Assembly: GCA_964571255.1 (NCBI GenBank)
Contig: CAZNAA010000001.1
Span: forward strand, 702,230-766,229
Direction of reading: 5' to 3'
Source: an uncultured Gammaproteobacteria bacterium
GTDB lineage: Bacteria; Patescibacteriota; Microgenomatia; Levybacterales; UBA12049
Length of the DNA: 64,000 nucleotides
The notes below the pieces were generated by a model. That model saw nothing but the letters and a program-made list of their open reading frames with translations. It was not told where the DNA came from and did no database searches. Below are positions 34,928-54,638 of this stretch, in pieces (position 1 is the stretch's first letter; each line of letters opens with the position of its first letter). The position numbers and the translations under genes were made by a program.

Positions 34928-36372
34928 GAGCATCTATTTGGAATAAACAAATCCCCTCTATCTTAGGGATCCTTCTTTTAGTTGGAGGGTTATTTGCTAC
35001 CTCTTATTTGGTTGATAAAAGAGTTTTTTTCTTTACCAAAGCCTCAACAGGAACTGAGCCACAATTTGTAACAATTACGAATGTTTCTGATTCCTCCTTT
35101 AGCGTAACCTATCAAACGAGTGAGCTGACACAAGGGACGCTGTCTCTTGGAGAAGCAGCTGATAAAACAGAGAAAATTGTTTTAGACGATCGGGATCAAT
35201 CAGCAGGAAAATCAGAAGTTTATAATTTACATCATATTAGTGTCAAAAATACGACACCAGATACAACCTATCAGTTTTTCATTGTTTCTGGAAAAGATGT
35301 GTATGGAGACAAAGGCAAACCATATTCAGTCAGAACTGGCCCCAAAATCACCTCAGACCCATCAACTCAGCCTCCTCTTACAGGAAAAGTAAATGAAAAA
35401 GAAGAAGTTTTACTCGTGGTAACTGGTGCAGGGATAGCCCCACTCTCCACTCTAATGAAGCAAGATGGAACTTATTTTCTTCCTTTAAATGCCATTCGGG
35501 ATGCTTCTTTACAAGAATTTGTTACTCTTTCCCCCTCTCTTCCCCTCACTCTTTCTATTTATGGGAAGACTACTCGCTCTCTTGCCACTTTCTTCCCATC
35601 TGACTCATCTCCTTTACCTCTTATTATTTTAGGACAAGAATATGACTTCACTACTCTTGAGAAAAAAACAGAATCTACCCCTTTAAGTTCTGATAGTGCT
35701 TCTTTTCTTCCTTTATACGCCGACATCTCAGAAGACACCACAGTGTCTCTCTCTGTCCCAAGTAACGGAACTTCTGATTCTCAACCACTGTTTTCAGGAG
35801 AGGGAGTACCACAAGAAACAGTGGAGATTGAGATTCGCTCAGACGTCATAACTGGAACAACAAAAGTGCTTGCTAATGGAACCTGGTCTTTTCGTCCATC
35901 AACTCCTCTTCCTCCTGGAGAGCATACGATTACGATTAAAACCAAAGAAAAAAATGGATTATTAAAATCCATCACTCGCTCCTTTACAGTATACGCACAA
36001 GGGAGTCAATCAACAGAGCCATCTGTCAAACCAACTAATACTCCCAGTACTATTCCTTCCCCCACACCTACTGTAACAGCATCTCCAACTCCTACTCCTA
36101 CCAAAGTGCCTTCACCAGCACCAAGTAGTACCACTACTCCCACTCTCCCTCTTCCAACAACTAGTGTGATAACGGCAACTCCAACTATTGCTCTCCCAAC
36201 CCCCACTCCCACACTGCGAATATCACCAGCGATACCAACACCTACTTCAACCACCCCTCCACCTATTGCTGATACAGGAAGTTTGAGTGCCTATGTTATT
36301 TTGCTCTTTGGGGTCTTCACATGTGGAGTAGGTTTGCTATTATTCTTTAGATCAGGAAGAGGAGTGATATGA
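34924..36372 (+). CDS. cell-surface protein with Fn3-like domain, PT-rich stalk and C-terminal sorting-signal-like anchor
   Basis: N-terminal TM; ITNVSDSSFSVTYQT...TTYQFFIVSG Fn3/PAP-N-like domain; long P/T-rich linker; terminal IADTGS + hydrophobic stretch + RSGRG. Confidence 0.4.
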   Translation: MRASIWNKQIPSILGILLLVGGLFATSYLVDKRVFFFTKASTGTEPQFVTITNVSDSSFSVTYQTSELTQGTLSLGEAADKTEKIVLDDRDQSAGKSEVYNLHHISVKNTTPDTTYQFFIVSGKDVYGDKGKPYSVRTGPKITSDPSTQPPLTGKVNEKEEVLLVVTGAGIAPLSTLMKQDGTYFLPLNAIRDASLQEFVTLSPSLPLTLSIYGKTTRSLATFFPSDSSPLPLIILGQEYDFTTLEKKTESTPLSSDSASFLPLYADISEDTTVSLSVPSNGTSDSQPLFSGEGVPQETVEIEIRSDVITGTTKVLANGTWSFRPSTPLPPGEHTITIKTKEKNGLLKSITRSFTVYAQGSQSTEPSVKPTNTPSTIPSPTPTVTASPTPTPTKVPSPAPSSTTTPTLPLPTTSVITATPTIALPTPTPTLRISPAIPTPTSTTPPPIADTGSLSAYVILLFGVFTCGVGLLLFFRSGRGVI

Positions 36373-45318: not shown

Positions 45319-47145
45319 ATGCCAGAACAACTGCTCAAGTCTTTAAATCCTCAACAACAAGAAGCTGTTATCAACTCAGTAGGTCCCTCCATTATTTTAG
45401 CAGGAGCAGGCAGTGGAAAAACAAGAGTTTTGACTTATAAGGTACTCTATCTTGTTCTGGAAAAGCAGATCGATCCATCAGAGATATTGATGGTCACGTT
45501 CACAAATAAAGCAGCTGGAGAGATGAAGGAGAGAATTCAAACTTTTTTTGGAGAGTACCGCATTGGATCCCTTCCTCTGGTTACTACCTTTCATTCTCTT
45601 GGAGCTCGCCTTCTCAGACGTCATCCTGACAGAGTGGGTTTATCAACGGATTTTACGATTTATGATTCGACTGATCAGATTGACGCCATAAAAGAAGTGA
45701 TGCATAGCTTAGGTATTTCTCCAAAAGACGTAAAACCTAGTGCAGCACTCGGGACTATCTCCAATGCAAAAAATGAGCTGCTCTCCCCTGATCTCTATGC
45801 AAGTTTTTCTCGTGGACAATTTCAAGTTGCTGTTTCTAAAATCTATACTGCCTATCAAAAGCTATTGCAACAAAATAATGCAGTTGATTTTGACGACTTA
45901 GTCTTAAAAGGCGTCATGCTTTTAAAAGAAAATCCTGATTTAGCCCAGAAATATCAACAAACCTTTCAATATATTTTAATTGATGAGTATCAAGATACAA
46001 ATAAACCTCAATATGAATTTACCAAACTTCTCTCAAAACAAGCAAAGCATATTTGCGTGGTTGGAGACTTCTCTCAAAGTATCTATTCCTGGAGAGGAGC
46101 AGATTTTCAAAATCTCAAACGGTTTGAAGTGGATTTTCCTGGAACCAAAACCTTTTCTCTTTCCCAAAATTACCGATCAACTCAAACCATACTTGACGGA
46201 GCAACAGCTGTGATCAAAAAGAACACACTCCACCCAGTGTTGAAACTATGGACAGAAAATCCTCAAGGAGAATCTATTGAAGTCTATGAAGCAAAATCAG
46301 AACAAGATGAAGCGGACTTTATTATTCAGAAACTAATAGAGCGGGGAGTGAGTAAATTAGCAGACAACGCCGTACTCTATCGAACCAATGCCCAGTCTCG
46401 AGTGATCGAAGAAGCTTTTCTGCATCATGGAATTCCCTATACCCTTATTGGCGGAACGCGGTTTTATGAAAGAAAAGAGGTAAAAGATGTTTTGTCTTAT
46501 CTTCGACTCGTTGCTAATCCTACAGATTCTGTTTCAAAAACACGAGCTGAAAAATTAGGGAAAGGAAGATTTAGTGCTTTTGAAGAATTTCTCTCTACCA
46601 AGTCAGCTGAAGAGCGAGAAAAAACGATTGATTTACTTGATCAAATTCTTGAAAAAACTAACTATCTTTCTCTGTACAACGAAGAAGATCCAGAAGATAT
46701 GGCCCGACTTGAAAACATTAAAGAATTACGATCTGTTGCCTATAGCTTTCCTGATCTCATTGAGTTTTTAGAAAATGTTGCCTTAGTTGAGAAAGAGTAT
46801 TCAACTGAGGACGAGAAAGCCACTAAAAACACGGTTACGCTTATGACGCTTCATGCAGCCAAAGGATTAGAATTTCCTGTTATTTTTATGGTTGGCATGG
46901 AGGAGGGGATTTTTCCTCATAGTAGATCGCTTATGGATAAGCATGAATTGGAAGAAGAAAGAAGACTTTGTTATGTTGGAATTACAAGAGCTCGGGAAAA
47001 GCTCTATTTGACCTATGCTAAAAAAAGACTTTTTTTCGGACAAAGAACTGCAGGAGTCATGAGCCGCTTCCTTTTCGATTTGCCAGAAGAAGCTCTTTTA
47101 CAGCATACTAGTACTAGTTCCTATTTTGATCCTTATGACGTTTAG
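45319..47145 (+). CDS. UvrD/PcrA/Rep family ATP-dependent DNA helicase (short form)
   Basis: Walker A AGAGSGKTRVLTYKV, DEYQDTN motif II, VGDFSQSIYSWRGA motif III. Confidence 0.85.
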   Translation: MPEQLLKSLNPQQQEAVINSVGPSIILAGAGSGKTRVLTYKVLYLVLEKQIDPSEILMVTFTNKAAGEMKERIQTFFGEYRIGSLPLVTTFHSLGARLLRRHPDRVGLSTDFTIYDSTDQIDAIKEVMHSLGISPKDVKPSAALGTISNAKNELLSPDLYASFSRGQFQVAVSKIYTAYQKLLQQNNAVDFDDLVLKGVMLLKENPDLAQKYQQTFQYILIDEYQDTNKPQYEFTKLLSKQAKHICVVGDFSQSIYSWRGADFQNLKRFEVDFPGTKTFSLSQNYRSTQTILDGATAVIKKNTLHPVLKLWTENPQGESIEVYEAKSEQDEADFIIQKLIERGVSKLADNAVLYRTNAQSRVIEEAFLHHGIPYTLIGGTRFYERKEVKDVLSYLRLVANPTDSVSKTRAEKLGKGRFSAFEEFLSTKSAEEREKTIDLLDQILEKTNYLSLYNEEDPEDMARLENIKELRSVAYSFPDLIEFLENVALVEKEYSTEDEKATKNTVTLMTLHAAKGLEFPVIFMVGMEEGIFPHSRSLMDKHELEEERRLCYVGITRAREKLYLTYAKKRLFFGQRTAGVMSRFLFDLPEEALLQHTSTSSYFDPYDV

Positions 47146-50361: not shown

Positions 50362-50417
50362 GTGTATTATCGTAGCAGAAATAAAAAAGAAGGTATAGAG
50401 AAAAGGTAAGTGGTTTA

Positions 50418-50514
50418 GTGCCGGGGAGAGGAAGAGACGAGGTATTCGGCTTGTTAGCGCTCAACGCGCTTAGCCGATGTACCATCATCTTTTTTCTTCC
50501 TTCTCCCCAGGCAC
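50418..50514. repeat. 97 nt long-stem structured element, copy A (19 bp imperfect outer stem enclosing a 30 nt hairpin)
   Basis: Outer arms GTGCCGGGGAGAGGAAGAG / CTTCCTTCTCCCCAGGCAC; inner hairpin CGGCTTGTTAGCGCTCAACGCGCTTAGCCG; 3 mismatches to copy B at 52893..52989 over ~110 nt. Confidence 0.6.
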
Positions 50515-50525
50515 TTGAGCTCTTG

Positions 50526-50996
50526 CTATCGCGGGTTTGGGTTCCAGATCACTCCACTTTGGAGAAGTGCAAGAGGAGTCGTTCCTTCACTCATCTCCAC
50601 GTAGGTCTGGATTATTGCACCATGGGGGATATTCTTCCCTTTCGGGTCAAAGTGGCACTTGAGACGTGCCACAGTCGACGGCGAGGAGCAGACTGGCCAT
50701 TTGACTCCACCAAACTCAACCCAGATACTTATGCTTCGTTCAAACGAAGGACCAGTGACTACTACTTCAATTTCCACCAATCCCTCGGCGTTTTCCCGGG
50801 GGAGTCCATCAAATTTGATGAAGTCCTCCGACGTGTTTGAAGGAGTGGATGGGCGAGTAGGTACTGGTTTTGGTCGAGCCTGACTCGAGCGTGGGAGGTT
50901 GTCCCACGCCAAAGCAACGAAGATAAGAAGACCTACGAGTGCTACGGCAAAAGAACGCCATCCTGTCTGTTGTCGGTTACGTGATCGTTTGACCAT
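50526..50996 (-). CDS. signal-anchored secreted protein, module A (diverged paralog of 53002..53448)
   Basis: GGAGGTG Shine-Dalgarno before the ATG; basic N-terminus then hydrophobic helix; shares a C..FDP..IP.G..I block with the copy-B protein; visibly GC-rich. Confidence 0.5.
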   Translation of the reverse strand: MVKRSRNRQQTGWRSFAVALVGLLIFVALAWDNLPRSSQARPKPVPTRPSTPSNTSEDFIKFDGLPRENAEGLVEIEVVVTGPSFERSISIWVEFGGVKWPVCSSPSTVARLKCHFDPKGKNIPHGAIIQTYVEMSEGTTPLALLQSGVIWNPNPR

Positions 50997-51079
50997 GACT
51001 CACCTCCGTGTAAACAGATATCTCCACACCTTCCGGGACATCCGAAAGGTGAGTAGACTCGAGTGAGGGAGCAGAGATA

Positions 51080-51328
51080 CTAGAAAGTCAGGTACTGAAT
51101 CCTCGTCACTCCAGATGTTTCTCGAACCTGAGCCAGATAACTACTGATCTGGTCCGGAGTAACACCTCGATAGAGCGTTGAGAAGAGATATCGTCCCTCC
51201 TCAAGCTCAACAGGATTTCCCGCTACGGCGTTAGACGCCGGTGCTGCCGAGAAAGGAGGAAGCGTTGTATTATAGCTTCCATCCGGAAGCTTCTTCCTCG
51301 TCACTTCCACTGCAATGAGATAGTTCAT
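51080..51328 (-). CDS. small protein (82 aa), module A
   Basis: GGAGGA Shine-Dalgarno 5 nt before the ATG; first gene behind the conserved promoter and leader. Confidence 0.4.
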   Translation of the reverse strand: MNYLIAVEVTRKKLPDGSYNTTLPPFSAAPASNAVAGNPVELEEGRYLFSTLYRGVTPDQISSYLAQVRETSGVTRIQYLTF

Positions 51329-51497
51329 CAGATTCCTCCATGCGGTCTAGATCTGCCCCCTCAAAGACCGCTCAGAGAAAAAAGAAGTAATTCTTTCCTT
51401 TCTTAGCAGTCTTTGCGTAAGACAAACTAATTTAGCAAGAGCTTGTTAAAGAACTAAGAAGAAGTTGAAACGCATTTGTTTCTTTTTCTTCTTATTA
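51329..51497 (-). promoter_or_regulatory. conserved ~165 nt structured 5' leader, module A
   Basis: Hairpins AAGAAGAA-AAAGAAACAAAUGCGUUUCAAC-UUCUUCUU and GCGGUCU...AGACCGC are identical in copy B; the SD lies directly 3' of hairpin 2. Confidence 0.45.
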
Positions 51498-51503
51498 AGC
51501 GTG

Positions 51504-51532
51504 AGATTACCATAAAAATGCCTTGATGTCAA
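51504..51532 (-). promoter_or_regulatory. sigma70-type promoter, module A (-35 TTGACA, 17 nt spacer, -10 TAATCT)
   Basis: Read on the minus strand; copy B has TTGACT / 17 nt / TAATCT. Confidence 0.5.
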
Positions 51533-51597
51533 ACTATGGGATAATTTACTTTGAGTAACTTCTAGACAAGTTACACTCAAAAGAGTATAAATAGGGT

Positions 51598-52203
51598 ATG
51601 TTTGAATTACCCACTCTTCCGTATGACTACTCCGCTCTTGAACCATATATTGATGAAGAAACTATGCGTCTTCACCACACCAAACATCACCAAACCTATA
51701 TTACAAAGCTTAACGAAGCGCTAGCAAAACATCCAGAGATTCATATTGATAACGCAGAAGAATTATTAAAACAACTTACTTCTCTTCCTGAGGATATTCA
51801 GAAAGCTGTAAGAAATCATGGTGGGGGACACAGTAATCATTCTCTTTTCTGGACTATTATGAGTAAAAGTGAGGGGAGTACTCCTTCTGGAAAAATTGCT
51901 AAAGCCATTGAGGAAACATTTGGCAGTTTTGATGAGTTTAAAGAGAAATTCTCAACTACCGCAACAAATATCTTTGGCTCAGGTTGGGCATGGCTGGCGG
52001 TAAAAGAAGGCAAACTTCACCTGCTTGATACAGCGAATCAAGATTCACCACTTCTTCAAGGAATGACTCCTGTTTTTGCTTTAGATGTGTGGGAGCATGC
52101 ATATTATTTGAAATATCAAAACAAGAGAGCTGATTATATTGCCGCCTGGTGGAATATTATTAACTGGGAAGAGGTTGAGAAGCGTTTTGAAAGTGCAATG
52201 TAG
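51598..52203 (+). CDS. sodA: Fe/Mn superoxide dismutase
   Basis: [29 protein letters not shown] and DVWEHAYY metal-ligand motifs. Confidence 0.9.
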
Positions 52204-52893
52204 ATGAAATCCCTATTCCTTAAAATTAGTTTAGTCAGTATCTATCTTGTGTGTTTTCTCGTTCCCGGTTACACCTACTTTTTCTCAAGTCCCACAACTC
52301 TTGAAACTCTTAAAAGCACTCCCATCACTGATCCGCTCTTTCACTTAACCCTTTTTAGACTTTTTGGACTCTATGCCTTTACCCTTGTCTGGAGTCAAAT
52401 TATGCTTGGAGCTCTCAGACTTCCTTTAACCAGATTTTTTGGGAGTAAAATACTAGGATTGCATATCACCTTTGGTATCACTACGCTTCTTTTCACTTTC
52501 TTGCATACCGGACTTTTTTCCCTAGCTCATTTTTTACAAACTCCACCTGTTTTTTTCCCTCCAACCATGTTGCAAACGTATTTGGGAAGTCTGGCAATCT
52601 ATGGATACTTAGGACTCATTGCCTTTGACTTGATGCTTCTCACTACTGCGGCAGGAATCCTGAGAAAGAAGTTATTTATTCGAAAATACTGGAGACTTAT
52701 TCACAAAGGGAATTATCTTATCTTTATTCTTGTTTTTATTCACAGCTCTATGATTGGGAGTGAAATAGGAACTTCTCCTATGCAATATCTCTATCGTTTC
52801 TTTCTTCTCACTTTTATTGGAGTTGTAGGGTACAAACTATACGATGCCAATAAATCCTGCTTACAAAAAGTTACGGAGAATAATGTGGCTTAG
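52204..52893 (+). CDS. bis-heme b-type membrane protein (ferric reductase / MsrQ-like transmembrane domain)
   Basis: Six predicted TM helices with two His pairs spaced 13-14 residues apart (LHITFG...FLHTG; IHKGN...FIHSS); start codon abuts the sodA stop. Confidence 0.4.
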   Translation: MKSLFLKISLVSIYLVCFLVPGYTYFFSSPTTLETLKSTPITDPLFHLTLFRLFGLYAFTLVWSQIMLGALRLPLTRFFGSKILGLHITFGITTLLFTFLHTGLFSLAHFLQTPPVFFPPTMLQTYLGSLAIYGYLGLIAFDLMLLTTAAGILRKKLFIRKYWRLIHKGNYLIFILVFIHSSMIGSEIGTSPMQYLYRFFLLTFIGVVGYKLYDANKSCLQKVTENNVA

Positions 52894-52989
52894 TGCCGAG
52901 GAGAGGAAGAGACGAGGTGTTCGGCTTGTTAGCGCTCAACGCGCTTAGCCGATGTACCATCATCTTTTTTCTTCCTTCTCCTCAGGCAC
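52893..52989. repeat. 97 nt long-stem structured element, copy B
   Basis: Starts in the stop codon of the 52204..52893 gene; the G>A change in the 5' arm is matched by C>T in the 3' arm, so pairing is preserved. Confidence 0.6.
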
Positions 52990-53001
52990 TTGAGCTCTTG
53001 C

Positions 53002-53448
53002 TTACGGGACCTTAACCTTTACTGGTGACGATCGCCAGAACTTTACTCCGGTGTTCAGCTCATACTGAATATTTATTCGCCTACCAGAGGGAATCTCCCA
53101 GATGCTTGGGTCAAACTCGCAGAGATAGATATGTCCACTCCCTCGGGGAGCGGATTGCTCGGGAGTTAGATCACAGAGATGGACCGCTACGGGAGCGTCT
53201 ATCCCTTCCCACTCCCAAGTTCCGAGGAAAGAAACAAGTGTCAGGTCATCCCTACGAGGGACATAGACACTCATCTTGATCTTTCCATCCACCACTCGGG
53301 GGGAATCATTCCAATCTGCTCCAGACTGAAGTGTCCTATTATTGAACAGGAGTGAAATCCCAAGTATTGTCAAAAGGCAGATAGTAACAAGTCCTCGTCC
53401 CCAAGAGAATTTAGAGCGCGGTCGATTAGTGTACGTCCGAGCACCCAT
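53002..53448 (-). CDS. signal-anchored secreted protein, module B
   Basis: GGAGGA Shine-Dalgarno; basic N-terminus plus TM; HIYLCEFDPSIWEIPSGRRINIQ matches CHFDPKGKNIPHGAIIQ in the module-A protein. Confidence 0.5.
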   Translation of the reverse strand: MGARTYTNRPRSKFSWGRGLVTICLLTILGISLLFNNRTLQSGADWNDSPRVVDGKIKMSVYVPRRDDLTLVSFLGTWEWEGIDAPVAVHLCDLTPEQSAPRGSGHIYLCEFDPSIWEIPSGRRINIQYELNTGVKFWRSSPVKVKVP

Positions 53449-53533
53449 AGTGGTGTCCTCCAGTTAGAGATAGTATCGCGACACTTCCGGGACATCCGAA
53501 AGTGAGTACGATTGAGTGAGGGGGCAGAGGTCA

Positions 53534-53758
53534 CTAGAAGAGCCTGTGCATGTGATAGTCGATCAGATTAGGATCAATTTTGAGATTGATCCTAAAGGTA
53601 TTCATATCTTCCTCTGAGATATGATGCCGACTTATTGAAATATAGATACCATCTTTTGGTACCGCGTCAATGCTAGCAAGCAGAGGAACTGAGTCTTGCA
53701 ACGCACATGGATACTTTCGTGAACGCATCTTACAAACAACCAAGTAATCGTACATCAT
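53534..53758 (-). CDS. small protein (74 aa), module B
   Basis: GGAGGG SD then ATGATG; same position as the module-A small ORF but highly diverged. Confidence 0.35.
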   Translation of the reverse strand: MMYDYLVVCKMRSRKYPCALQDSVPLLASIDAVPKDGIYISISRHHISEEDMNTFRINLKIDPNLIDYHMHRLF

Positions 53759-53917
53759 CCCTCCCTGCGGTCTAGATCTGCCCCCTCAAAGACCGCTCAG
53801 AGAAAAAAGAATAAGCTTCTTTTCTTTCTGAACAATCCTTAAAGAGACATTTAAGCAAGAGCTGTTAAAGAACGTAAGAAGAAGTTGAAACGCATTTGTT
53901 TCTTTTTCTTCTTATTA
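53759..53917 (-). promoter_or_regulatory. conserved structured 5' leader, module B
   Basis: Same two hairpin blocks as 51329..51497; the central ~45 nt is variable. Confidence 0.45.
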
Positions 53918-53923
53918 CGCGTG

Positions 53924-53952
53924 AGATTATCATAAAAATATCTTAAAGTCAA
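53924..53952 (-). promoter_or_regulatory. sigma70-type promoter, module B (-35 TTGACT, 17 nt, -10 TAATCT)
   Basis: Read on the minus strand. Confidence 0.5.
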
Positions 53953-54005
53953 ACTATGGGACGGTTTATGTTTGATCTTAGTGCTTTGTACAAAGGGAGA
54001 TTATC

Positions 54006-54638
54006 CTAGATTCCAACTAGTTTATTCGCTAGCTTATCTACTCGTTCATTCATTTCTATTCCTGCATGTCCTGCAACTTTTTCATAGACTACTTGTAACG
54101 CATTTTCCTGAATTACTTTTTCAATTGCCTCAAAGATTTCTTTATTCGCTTTAATCATTGAAGCGGGTTTAAAGAGGTTATGAATCGAGATTTGACTGTC
54201 AGAGAGAATTTTTATTGTTTTATACTTGTTTTTAGCTGCCCAAACTAACGCTTCAAAAATAGCCAACGCTTCTGCTGTATTATTCGTTTGCTTTCCTTCA
54301 ACTAACCCACTTGCTTCAAAGTTTTTGGTAACAAAAGCCCAAGCAGCTTTGGCATTGACTTGTCCATTGCTTGCACACGCCCCGTCAGTCCAAATCTCGA
54401 TATCAAACTGGTGATCTAAAGGAAGCTCTGGAGTCGTAAAAAGAGAGTAGTTTTTATTCACTACTTTAAAAGAGTCGTCTAGATACATTTTCTGACACCT
54501 TGGACAGAAGTAATAGGCAGTATAGTAATATTGTTTTAACAATTGCTCAGGAGTACGTCTGGTTTGACGTACTTGTAGTGGAGTCCTACAGGTTTTACAT
54601 GTTTTATTTGATAAATTCTGCGACATAGGACTTTGCAA
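54006..54638 (-). CDS. rnhA: ribonuclease HI with N-terminal zinc-ribbon region
   Basis: C-terminal RNase H1 residues (IWTDGAC, TNNTAEALAIFEAL, ILSDSQ, HAGIEMNERVDKLAN); N-terminal CKTC...CPRC. Confidence 0.7.
   Translation of the reverse strand: MQSPMSQNLSNKTCKTCRTPLQVRQTRRTPEQLLKQYYYTAYYFCPRCQKMYLDDSFKVVNKNYSLFTTPELPLDHQFDIEIWTDGACASNGQVNAKAAWAFVTKNFEASGLVEGKQTNNTAEALAIFEALVWAAKNKYKTIKILSDSQISIHNLFKPASMIKANKEIFEAIEKVIQENALQVVYEKVAGHAGIEMNERVDKLANKLVGI

Follow-up and report, generated by a model that had tools for sequence, protein, structure and literature searches.

In a 64-kb window of Patescibacteria DNA (contig CAZNAA010000001.1; the window is the whole stretch of 64,000 nucleotides (nt) analysed, and all positions refer to it) two modules on the minus strand, A (50418-51532) and B (52893-53952), enclose sodA (51598-52203, plus strand) and a gene for a ferric-reductase-like membrane protein (52204-52893, plus strand). 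We propose, with a probability of about 0.55, that both modules are strongly promoted bicistronic mRNAs of approximately 1.05-1.1 kb, in which a conserved, lineage-specific RNA scaffold is combined with interchangeable small cell-envelope genes. Pairwise alignment of the modules reveals the same order of parts, i.e. a promoter, a leader of ~175 nt, a first open reading frame (ORF1), a spacer of 83-88 nt with a conserved core, a second open reading frame (ORF2) and a 97-nt 3' hairpin, and the ORFs are far more diverged than the blocks around them. Three direct-repeat families were found in the window by repeat search, all of them non-coding (D1 to D3, Table 1), and exact 17-45-mers of each conserved block occur twice in the window and not at all in shuffled sequences. 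The two ORF2 products share a block of 25 residues only (BLASTP E=7e-4; 23-26% identity overall) and the similarity between the two ORF1 products is not significant. The first-pass annotation of this DNA, which had described two GC-rich modules around sodA with ~90% identical non-coding and barely alignable coding parts, is thus confirmed in these points, the shared blocks being 86-97% identical. It was also right about base composition: at ~50% GC as compared to a window mean of 37.5% (standard deviation 3.9), the modules are the only sustained GC islands within the 64 kb. GC spikes near 36000 and 56800 were considered as further elements and rejected, as they lie inside ordinary long ORFs, and an nhmmer search over the window found no copies beyond the two non-adjacent modules.

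The promoter block carries a perfect -35 box in module A (TTGACA) and a nearly identical one in module B (TTGACT), while the -10 hexamer TAATCT retains only the TAnnnT core and a consensus promoter scanner makes no call. Of the near-consensus sigma70 promoter that had been claimed for the modules the -35 box therefore stands, whereas the -10 box is weak. In more distant relatives the promoter reads TTGATA-17-TATAAT. To judge from the position of these boxes, transcription of module A would start near 51497.

Compensatory substitutions on the sense strand maintain the scaffold. Relatives of the modules were collected as contigs from ENA, Logan and JGI that encode ORF2 relatives or were reached via sodA or the methyltransferase gene of the same locus, and leader, spacer and 3' element of six variants (modules A and B and the loci L001, L012, L013 and L034) were joined, with the payload ORFs deleted, for folding as an alignment. 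From these, RNAalifold predicted five elements unprompted: a closing helix of 11 bp, in which AGCUCUUGCUA of the leader pairs with UAGCAAGAGCU at the last stop codon, a 20-bp leader hairpin, a GGGGGC/GCCCCC pairing between leader and spacer, a 10-bp inter-ORF hairpin and the long 3' hairpin. Standard pairs are found in 94.1% of the cells as opposed to 45-51% in controls with the partners slid by 1-3 columns, and 17 pairs have changed on both sides as opposed to 3-5 in the slid controls; none of 500 shuffles reached the observed values. In the closing helix (helix 1) 95.5% of cells are paired and three pairs show compensatory change, with AU/UA and AU/CG exchanges; moreover, its insertions are matched in both arms, by 1 nt in module B and by 2 nt in L013. 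The closing duplex is more stable than shuffled sequences in all seven variants (z -2.6 to -4.9). The inter-ORF hairpin (helix 4) has 10 pairs, 98.3% paired cells and three compensatory pairs, and the leader-spacer pairing (helix 3) is paired in 91% of cells, its C-rich side lying 4-17 nt after the ORF1 stop codon. As G.U pairs (52) greatly outnumber A.C combinations (9), the structure belongs to the sense, transcribed strand, which is the minus strand of the window. The claim that the non-coding parts are under purifying selection is therewith supported at the level of RNA.

Folding against dinucleotide shuffles agrees with this picture, with z values of -3.85 for the leader, -3.2 and -2.8 for the two ORF2 coding regions and +0.7 for sodA. 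Hairpin 1 is present in the minimum-free-energy folds of all eight leaders, where its stems differ and its apical loop A(A/U)(A/U)UGC is kept. Hairpin 3 uses the GGUCUU segment that also forms the 3' arm of hairpin 2, which makes the two mutually exclusive; when sequences are folded singly without the 5' arm of hairpin 2 it appears in every lineage, exposes the G-rich motif in its loop and has arms that vary by lineage (GCGGUCU/AGACCGC, GUCUUCG/CGAAGAC and GGUCUUCA/UGAAGAUC). The 97-nt 3' hairpin is imperfect, is not followed by a U tract and was not called as an intrinsic terminator. A scan of the modules against Rfam 15 gave no match at the gathering threshold and only chance-level microRNA and snoRNA hits at E<=5, and the sequences of the relatives had no Rfam match either.

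Just 3' of the inter-ORF hairpin (51021-51030 in A, 53474-53485 in B, ~851-862 in L012 and ~5012-5023 in L013) every variant carries the conserved unpaired motif GUGUNGNGAUA, whose core is palindromic (AGATATCT in A, TCGCGA in B, L012 and L034, TCGA in L013) and which could be a binding site for a dimeric protein or a site of RNA-RNA kissing. A conserved upstream ORF starting from the AUG in the loop of this hairpin was considered and dropped, as the length of its frame varies from 3 to 54 codons.

All four payload ORFs of the window are preceded by a GGAGG-type Shine-Dalgarno site, and AlphaFold2 gave confident models for two folds. The predicted ectodomain of ORF2 is an FN3/Ig-like seven-strand beta-sandwich that can be superimposed on FN3 domains, a likeness at the fold level only, and the model of ORF1-A is a sandwich of the beta-alpha-beta type that matches bS6 or ACT domains in superposition. 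Searches of all payload ORFs against Pfam, PHROG and PADLOC returned nothing significant and no toxin or immunity family, which also covers the profile searches that had been suggested for the secreted proteins. A profile search with ORF2 among 1.84 billion representative proteins returned only the two proteins of the window, word-indexed protein searches found one relative each at 59% identity (the ORF2-B allele on L011, P0010, is ~59-62% identical), and ORF1 had no significant match among predicted viral structures. In relatives the payloads that follow ORF1 can be different and include small multi-pass membrane proteins: a B-like ORF2 and a 73-residue membrane protein in L013, and membrane proteins of 48 and 93 residues in L034. 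On L035-L037 the ORF in front closes with a hydrophobic segment and basic residues after it, a pattern that resembles a C-terminal membrane anchor.

The divergence of the payloads is large and constrained. By pairwise Nei-Gojobori estimates the ORF2 alleles of module A and L001 (61% amino acid identity) have a synonymous divergence (dS) of 1.74 and a ratio of nonsynonymous to synonymous divergence (dN/dS) of 0.18, those of module B and L011 (62% identity) a dS of 1.27 and a dN/dS of 0.23, and ORF2-A and ORF2-B, the comparison called for by the first-pass annotation, a dS of 3.2 and a dN/dS of 0.28. For the flanking genes, compared between the window and L008, dS is 0.51-0.84 and dN/dS 0.05-0.13. 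Since dN/dS among all ORF2 allele pairs lies between 0.09 and 0.28 and dS is saturating (1.3-3.2) and above that of the flanks (0.5-0.8), the ORF2 alleles are old and constrained. The substitution pattern shows the payload ORFs to be genuine genes that evolve under purifying selection and are much more diverged than the surrounding genome, and the rapid in-place arms race that had been suggested as an explanation is not borne out by these values. Neither is a foreign origin, suggested earlier from the GC content, shown or needed: the profile search described above found no ORF2 relative outside the lineage, and high GC is common to every allele and accompanies stable folding of the mRNA. GC is 0.49-0.58 in the payloads except ORF1-B (0.40), with a third-position GC (GC3) of 0.45-0.68, as compared to 0.35-0.44 (GC3 0.30-0.44) in the neighbouring genes, and could result from recombination-associated GC bias or from selection for mRNA structure.

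Comparison of the loci suggests that this divergence stems from a cassette-like replacement by way of the conserved blocks and not from an arms race in place. The module was found in the window and in L001, L008-L010, L012, L013 and L034-L037. Variants of module A lie next to sodA or the methyltransferase gene on L001/L002, L003 and L010, the contigs L008 (44 kb) and L009 (8 kb) are syntenic, L011 carries a module B variant, and L012, L013, L034 and L035-L037 are more distant; in L014-L016 sodA and the methyltransferase gene are separated by a gap of ~140 nt that holds no module. Named homologues of the methyltransferase are from Levyibacteriota, Parcubacteria and the 'Patescibacteria group', identifying the host as a member of the Patescibacteria. 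The flanks of L001 are 91-94% identical to the window as compared to 87-90% to L008, yet its ORF1 cannot be aligned with that of the window and is nearly identical to that of L008 (dS 0.07), and its ORF2 differs from both (dS 1.4-2.8; 1.4 to L008). Between L012 and L034 the flanks are 82% and ORF1 is 95% identical, the second payloads are unrelated and the 3' hairpins are 63% identical, while L013 holds a B-like ORF2 at the locus that is occupied by the A type in the window genome. These patterns indicate that replacement affects ORF1 and the payload behind it separately and that its breakpoints fall within the conserved blocks.

This genome gained module B by insertion, as the stop codons of the ferric-reductase-like and the RNase H gene abut in L008 and L009, which lack the module. 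It carries the promoter and ~60 nt that are homologous to the sodA-side intergenic region and must thus have arisen as a segmental copy at the DNA level; copying through RNA was dropped for the same reason. The ferric-reductase-like gene reads three codons into the end of module B (52885-52893), whose 3' hairpin ends at the stop codon of this gene, so that the insertion altered the C-terminus of the protein (..NNVA* as compared to ..N* in L008). Within this genome the two scaffolds are, to judge from their block-wise identities, patchily homogenised by recombination. The leader 3' part is 93% identical between modules A and B and 83% between A and its orthologues, and the 3' element 95% as opposed to 90-93%; in the leader middle the relation is reversed (72% as opposed to 96-98%). 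Homogenisation of the non-coding parts by recombination, as proposed in the first-pass annotation, is therefore seen in the leader 3' part and the 3' element but not in the leader middle. Taken together, these comparisons indicate a lineage-restricted (Patescibacteria) structured mRNA scaffold that resides at the sodA/methyltransferase locus and has one extra copy here.

Scans of public collections added no modules beyond the contigs that were reached through proteins. The 3' apex motif gave only four unrelated chance matches among genome contigs, a 20-mer of the 5' region gave none among metagenome contigs, and all 17 matches of a two-block leader pattern in metagenome contigs lay in coding sequence, either of a phage DNA polymerase or of other genes. 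Three scans of viral contigs returned nothing or false positives in high-GC phage genes, and none of the GenBank phages matched by blastn. A circular or tandem element, as which Logan contigs of about module length might be taken, was dropped because such contigs are interrupted at the repeats and run on into sodA or the methyltransferase gene.

How might such a scaffold work? At the level of RNA, the closing helix pairs leader nucleotides ~55-65 with the sequence at the last stop and thereby forms a panhandle around the whole coding part. The ends of the mRNA would be protected by hairpin 1 and the 3' hairpin. The last stop codon is part of the closing helix's 3' arm or precedes this arm by at most 6 nt, and the C-rich motif lies close behind the stop codon of ORF1; terminating ribosomes would therefore open these helices. 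Thus, a ribosome terminating on ORF1 may melt the G-rich/C-rich pairing and one terminating on the last ORF the closing helix, so that the fold would report translation, and the alternative between hairpins 2 and 3 may act as a switch. The scaffold would in this way provide stability as well as a translation-linked control of stability or of downstream translation. At the level of DNA, the same blocks would serve as homology arms for the replacement of whole ORFs by homologous recombination, which would also account for the patchy homogenising of the copies. The payloads, finally, may be variable surface proteins of an episymbiotic bacterium, whose diversity would be kept by balancing or frequency-dependent selection and not by rapid divergence in place. 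It is unlikely, on our estimate, that the modules go beyond this and form a dedicated 'chassis' of the candidate phyla radiation (CPR), i.e. a fixed RNA frame recognised by machinery of the host that confers the same expression, stability or membrane targeting on any small envelope gene and has exchange built in.

Several points weigh against the proposed RNA scaffold with exchangeable envelope genes. The compensatory changes come from 6-8 sequences of two sub-clades and hence represent few independent events. The leader-spacer duplex beats shuffles in only three of six variants (modules A and B and L013, not L001, L012 and L034) and contributes no compensatory change to the count, which is why we regard this G-rich/C-rich pairing as tentative. 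Between lineages the scaffold is 90-95% identical, close to the 84-93% of neighbouring housekeeping coding sequences, and the anomaly therefore lies mainly in the divergence of the payloads. As dS is saturated, the dN/dS values are rough and positive selection at particular sites is possible. Translational control is a guess: the conserved helices visibly sequester no Shine-Dalgarno site, none of them containing a GGAGG, and the leader arm of the closing helix lies ~120 nt upstream of the Shine-Dalgarno site of ORF1; since no conserved helix masks such a site, translation-linked control is put forward here as a conjecture. Finally, we infer the transcription start, the 3' end and the operon status of the modules. 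The same holds for the function of the payloads and the regulatory mechanism.

Could the modules then be related to type I toxin-antitoxin systems, with a closed mRNA that silences a harmful membrane protein until it is processed and an antisense RNA or the ORF1 product as the antidote? Long-distance pairing of the 5' end with the 3' end is a hallmark of the hok and aapA toxin mRNAs (PMC6733600) and is present here as well. In addition, all payloads after ORF1 are membrane proteins, including the hydrophobic ones of 48, 73 and 93 residues in L034 and L013, and the locus is duplicated, dispensable and, in some strains, decaying, with ORF2 being truncated in L008 and the module being absent from L014-L016. 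Then again, ORF2 encodes 148-156 residues with an FN3-like ectodomain in the model instead of a hydrophobic peptide of less than ~60 residues, a 48-residue transmembrane payload being found only in L034. The closing helix involves no Shine-Dalgarno site, the structure is specific to the sense strand, a promoter scan found no promoter-like plus-strand site inside the conserved blocks, and neither PADLOC nor Pfam matched a toxin or antitoxin, which together make an addiction module distinctly unlikely. We consider it still less probable that the modules belong to a site-specific gene-cassette system, integron-like or other, in which a recombinase encoded elsewhere would act on the 3' hairpin, and perhaps on the inter-ORF hairpin, as a folded-DNA site. 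Variable small ORFs with a conserved imperfect hairpin of attC-like size behind each would fit such a system, as would the apparent joint swapping of payload and 3' hairpin between L012 and L034 and the insertion of module B, relative to L008 and L009, at a site without intergenic spacer. However, the outer ends of the hairpin (GUGCCUGGGG...CCCCGGCAC in the window, GGUGCUGGG...CCCAGCGCC in relatives) lack the attC core (R'' RYYYAAC / R' GTTRRRY), and many G.U pairs would be A.C mismatches on the other strand and weak in DNA. Every unit has its own conserved promoter and leader, there is no array but two non-adjacent copies in 64 kb with none further by nhmmer, and the neighbours annotated in 20 kb of L008 include no integrase or transposase. 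Module B moreover includes ~60 nt from the intergenic region on the sodA side, as expected of a simple segmental duplication.

An ordinary old tandem-like duplication, whose regulatory regions are alike because of recent gene conversion and have no special function as RNA, would explain why, in the leader 3' part and the 3' element, the paralogous blocks of this genome resemble each other more closely than orthologous blocks of different genomes do. We judge it very unlikely, because architecture and compensatory changes persist in the single-copy lineages L012, L013 and L034, whose flanking proteins are only 66-72% identical, and conversion between paralogues cannot explain conservation there. 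Hardly credible is the view of the modules as large non-coding RNAs with incidental ORFs. It is true that they are GC-rich islands in an AT-rich genome, that the whole transcript folds more stably than shuffles and that the long-range helices enclose the ORFs, but no allele has lost its open frames although divergence is saturated, most substitutions are synonymous (dN/dS 0.09-0.28), Shine-Dalgarno sites lie at the right distance, two fold models are confident, cysteines are conserved and Rfam offers no match. A diversity-generating retroelement was also considered and rejected, as neither a reverse transcriptase nor a template repeat is present, the only repeats being the three non-coding families; the RNase_H/RVT_3 match of the neighbouring gene represents an RNase H fold and not a reverse transcriptase, and variation covers whole ORFs and not adenine positions only.

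The scaffold with exchangeable envelope genes thus remains our preferred reading, and among known systems type I toxin mRNAs come closest to it in RNA architecture and integron cassettes in logic. Like the modules, hok/Sok of plasmid R1 and aapA/IsoA of Helicobacter pylori have a compact structured mRNA whose 5' region pairs with the 3' region, alternative (metastable) leader hairpins, several chromosomal copies with conserved folding and membrane-protein products (PMC6733600). The modules differ in that their closing helix masks no ribosome-binding site, that no antisense RNA gene was found and no promoter-like site on the opposite strand inside the conserved blocks, that they have two or three ORFs, including one for a 150-residue ectodomain protein and one for a cytoplasmic ferredoxin-like protein, and that payloads are replaced wholesale between strains. 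With integron cassettes and attC sites, integrase-less clusters included, they share small diverse ORFs, an imperfect hairpin of 60-140 nt and presence or absence between relatives, whereas no attC core, integrase or array was found in the searches described above and each module has its own promoter, a 175-nt leader, an inter-ORF element and a G.U-rich structure of the sense RNA.

Variable surface-protein loci with conserved flanks are furthermore represented by vsp/vlp of Mycoplasma (conserved 5' regions) and by the expression sites of Anaplasma msp2 and Borrelia vlsE. These resemble the modules in that conserved flanks surround divergent envelope proteins and variation arises by recombination, but here the conserved parts are untranslated and kept as RNA structure, whole ORFs differ and no silent donor archive was seen. 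Long-distance RNA interactions couple translation in the single-stranded RNA phages MS2 and Qbeta, and the icaR mRNA of Staphylococcus aureus shows pairing between its 5' and 3' untranslated regions; as in the modules, long-range helices are placed for opening by a translating or terminating ribosome. These are single characterised cases with known Shine-Dalgarno masking, however, whereas the modules are a reusable frame for unrelated payloads in which masking is not evident. No Rfam, Pfam, PHROG or PADLOC match contradicts the early statement that no system of this architecture has been described, and the modules, which unite a structured mRNA closed over a long range with a variable, recombining locus for envelope proteins, have a modest chance of being a distinct system.

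Patescibacteria (CPR) are abundant and mostly uncultured episymbionts, and to our knowledge little is known about the regulation of their gene expression and about their surface variation. A multi-part scaffold of ~400 nt with 5'-3' closure supported by covariation, reused around unrelated payloads, would be a new class of cis-acting RNA, and the locus would mark where surface proteins are exchanged between strains. If the chassis existed, it would provide episymbionts with surface variation at the level of the population in a manner unlike integrons, toxin-antitoxin loci or classical sites of antigenic variation. The scaffold may also serve as a handle for small envelope genes that are missed by annotation, such as the ORFs of L008, which gene callers skipped.

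Table 1. Position of the modules, their elements and the direct repeats in the window
Feature	Position	Strand	Basis or remarks
Module A, whole unit, -35 box to end of 3' hairpin	50418-51532	-	aligned with module B and orthologous loci L001, L008, L010
Promoter A: -35 TTGACA (51527-51532), 17 nt, TAATCT (51504-51509)	51504-51532	-	read from sequence; block in all variants
Leader hairpin 1, apical loop AAAUGC	51455-51494	-	folds of all 8 leaders
Closing helix, 5' arm, AGCUCUUGCUA	51433-51443	-	RNAalifold helix 1, columns 73-83 with 347-357
Leader hairpin 2, long	51363-51414	-	helix 2: 20 pairs, 99.2% of cells paired, 4 compensatory pairs
Leader hairpin 3, GCGGUCU...AGACCGC; loop holds G-rich motif GAGGGGGCAGA (51352-51362)	51342-51371	-	per-sequence folds
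ORF1-A, 82 aa, predicted cytoplasmic, ferredoxin-like (bS6/ACT-like) fold	51080-51328	-	
C-rich motif UCUGCUCCCUC, 4 nt past ORF1 stop, complementary to leader G-rich motif	51065-51075	-	helix 3
Inter-ORF hairpin CACCUUUCGG-AUGUC-CCGGAAGGUG, then motif GUGUNGNGAUA	51027-51051	-	helix 4
ORF2-A, 156 aa, predicted N-terminal membrane anchor and 7-strand beta-sandwich ectodomain, two conserved Cys	50526-50996	-	
Closing helix, 3' arm, UAGCAAGAGCU, ORF2 stop codon within	50518-50528	-	RNAalifold, duplex z, matched indels
97-nt 3' hairpin, module A	50418-50514	-	helices 5-8: 7 compensatory pairs
Module B, whole unit, between convergent ferric-reductase-like and RNase H genes	52893-53952	-	aligned with A; site empty in L008, L009
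Module B -10 box and leader	53767-53929	-	alignment with A, folds
Module B hairpin 1	53875-53914	-	
Module B closing helix, leader arm	53852-53863	-	
Module B hairpin 2	53788-53840	-	
Module B G-rich motif	53777-53787	-	
Module B hairpin 3	53767-53796	-	
ORF1-B, 74 aa	53534-53758	-	diverged allele on L011
Module B spacer: C-rich motif UCUGCCCCCUC (53518-53528), inter-ORF hairpin (53482-53504)	53482-53528	-	
ORF2-B, 148 aa, predicted membrane-anchored, same protein family as ORF2-A	53002-53448	-	
Module B closing helix, 3' arm UAAGCAAGAGCU (52993-53004), and 97-nt 3' hairpin (52893-52989)	52893-53004	-	G-C to A-U compensatory change relative to A
Repeat D1, 3' element	50410-50527 / 52885-53002		118 nt, 97% identical
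Repeat D2, promoter and first leader hairpin	51431-51548 / 53851-53968		118 nt, 86% identical
Repeat D3, leader end	51332-51386 / 53757-53811		55 nt, 96% identical

Some further observations concern the relatives. On L003 (positions 1-1183, Logan SRR8893625, with the ORFs of module A) the sodA flank and the A-type promoter and ORFs are joined to a B-type leader middle (alignment columns 309-390), and this contig is either a real A/B recombinant in the population or a chimera of de Bruijn assembly across the shared repeats. The module A orthologues on L008 (9040-9990, minus strand) and L009 (1500-2450, minus strand) have lost the inter-ORF hairpin and the N-terminal anchor of ORF2; ~93 C-terminal codons of ORF2 have stayed open there, in an open frame of 107 codons in total, and no gene was annotated by gene callers in the module interval of L008. 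In L012 (1-290) and L034 (840-1160) an insertion of ~300 nt is found upstream of the module promoter, which in L034 separates sodA from the module. The two insertions share segments, e.g. GCACCCC.TCTGCTCTACGCTTTGCTTCGGCAGGCTTCCCCTGA and the start GTCATT..GAG.GAA.CG...AATC, and by these look like the remnant of a repeat or mobile element.

Elsewhere in the window, the only Rfam match above the gathering score lies at 46924-47023 on the plus strand (RF03531, n00280, 74.6 bits), a family named 'Clostridioides difficile sRNA included into helicase gene'. By synteny with L008 this match probably lies in a UvrD-like helicase gene, and it may reflect conserved coding sequence and not a small RNA. ARAGORN found no tRNA or tmRNA gene in the whole window. 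The RNase H gene beside module B (54006-54638, minus strand) encodes an N-terminal extension of ~70 residues with weak matches to zinc ribbons, and its orthologue in L013 encodes 146 residues and lies directly beside sodA, without the ferric-reductase-like gene.

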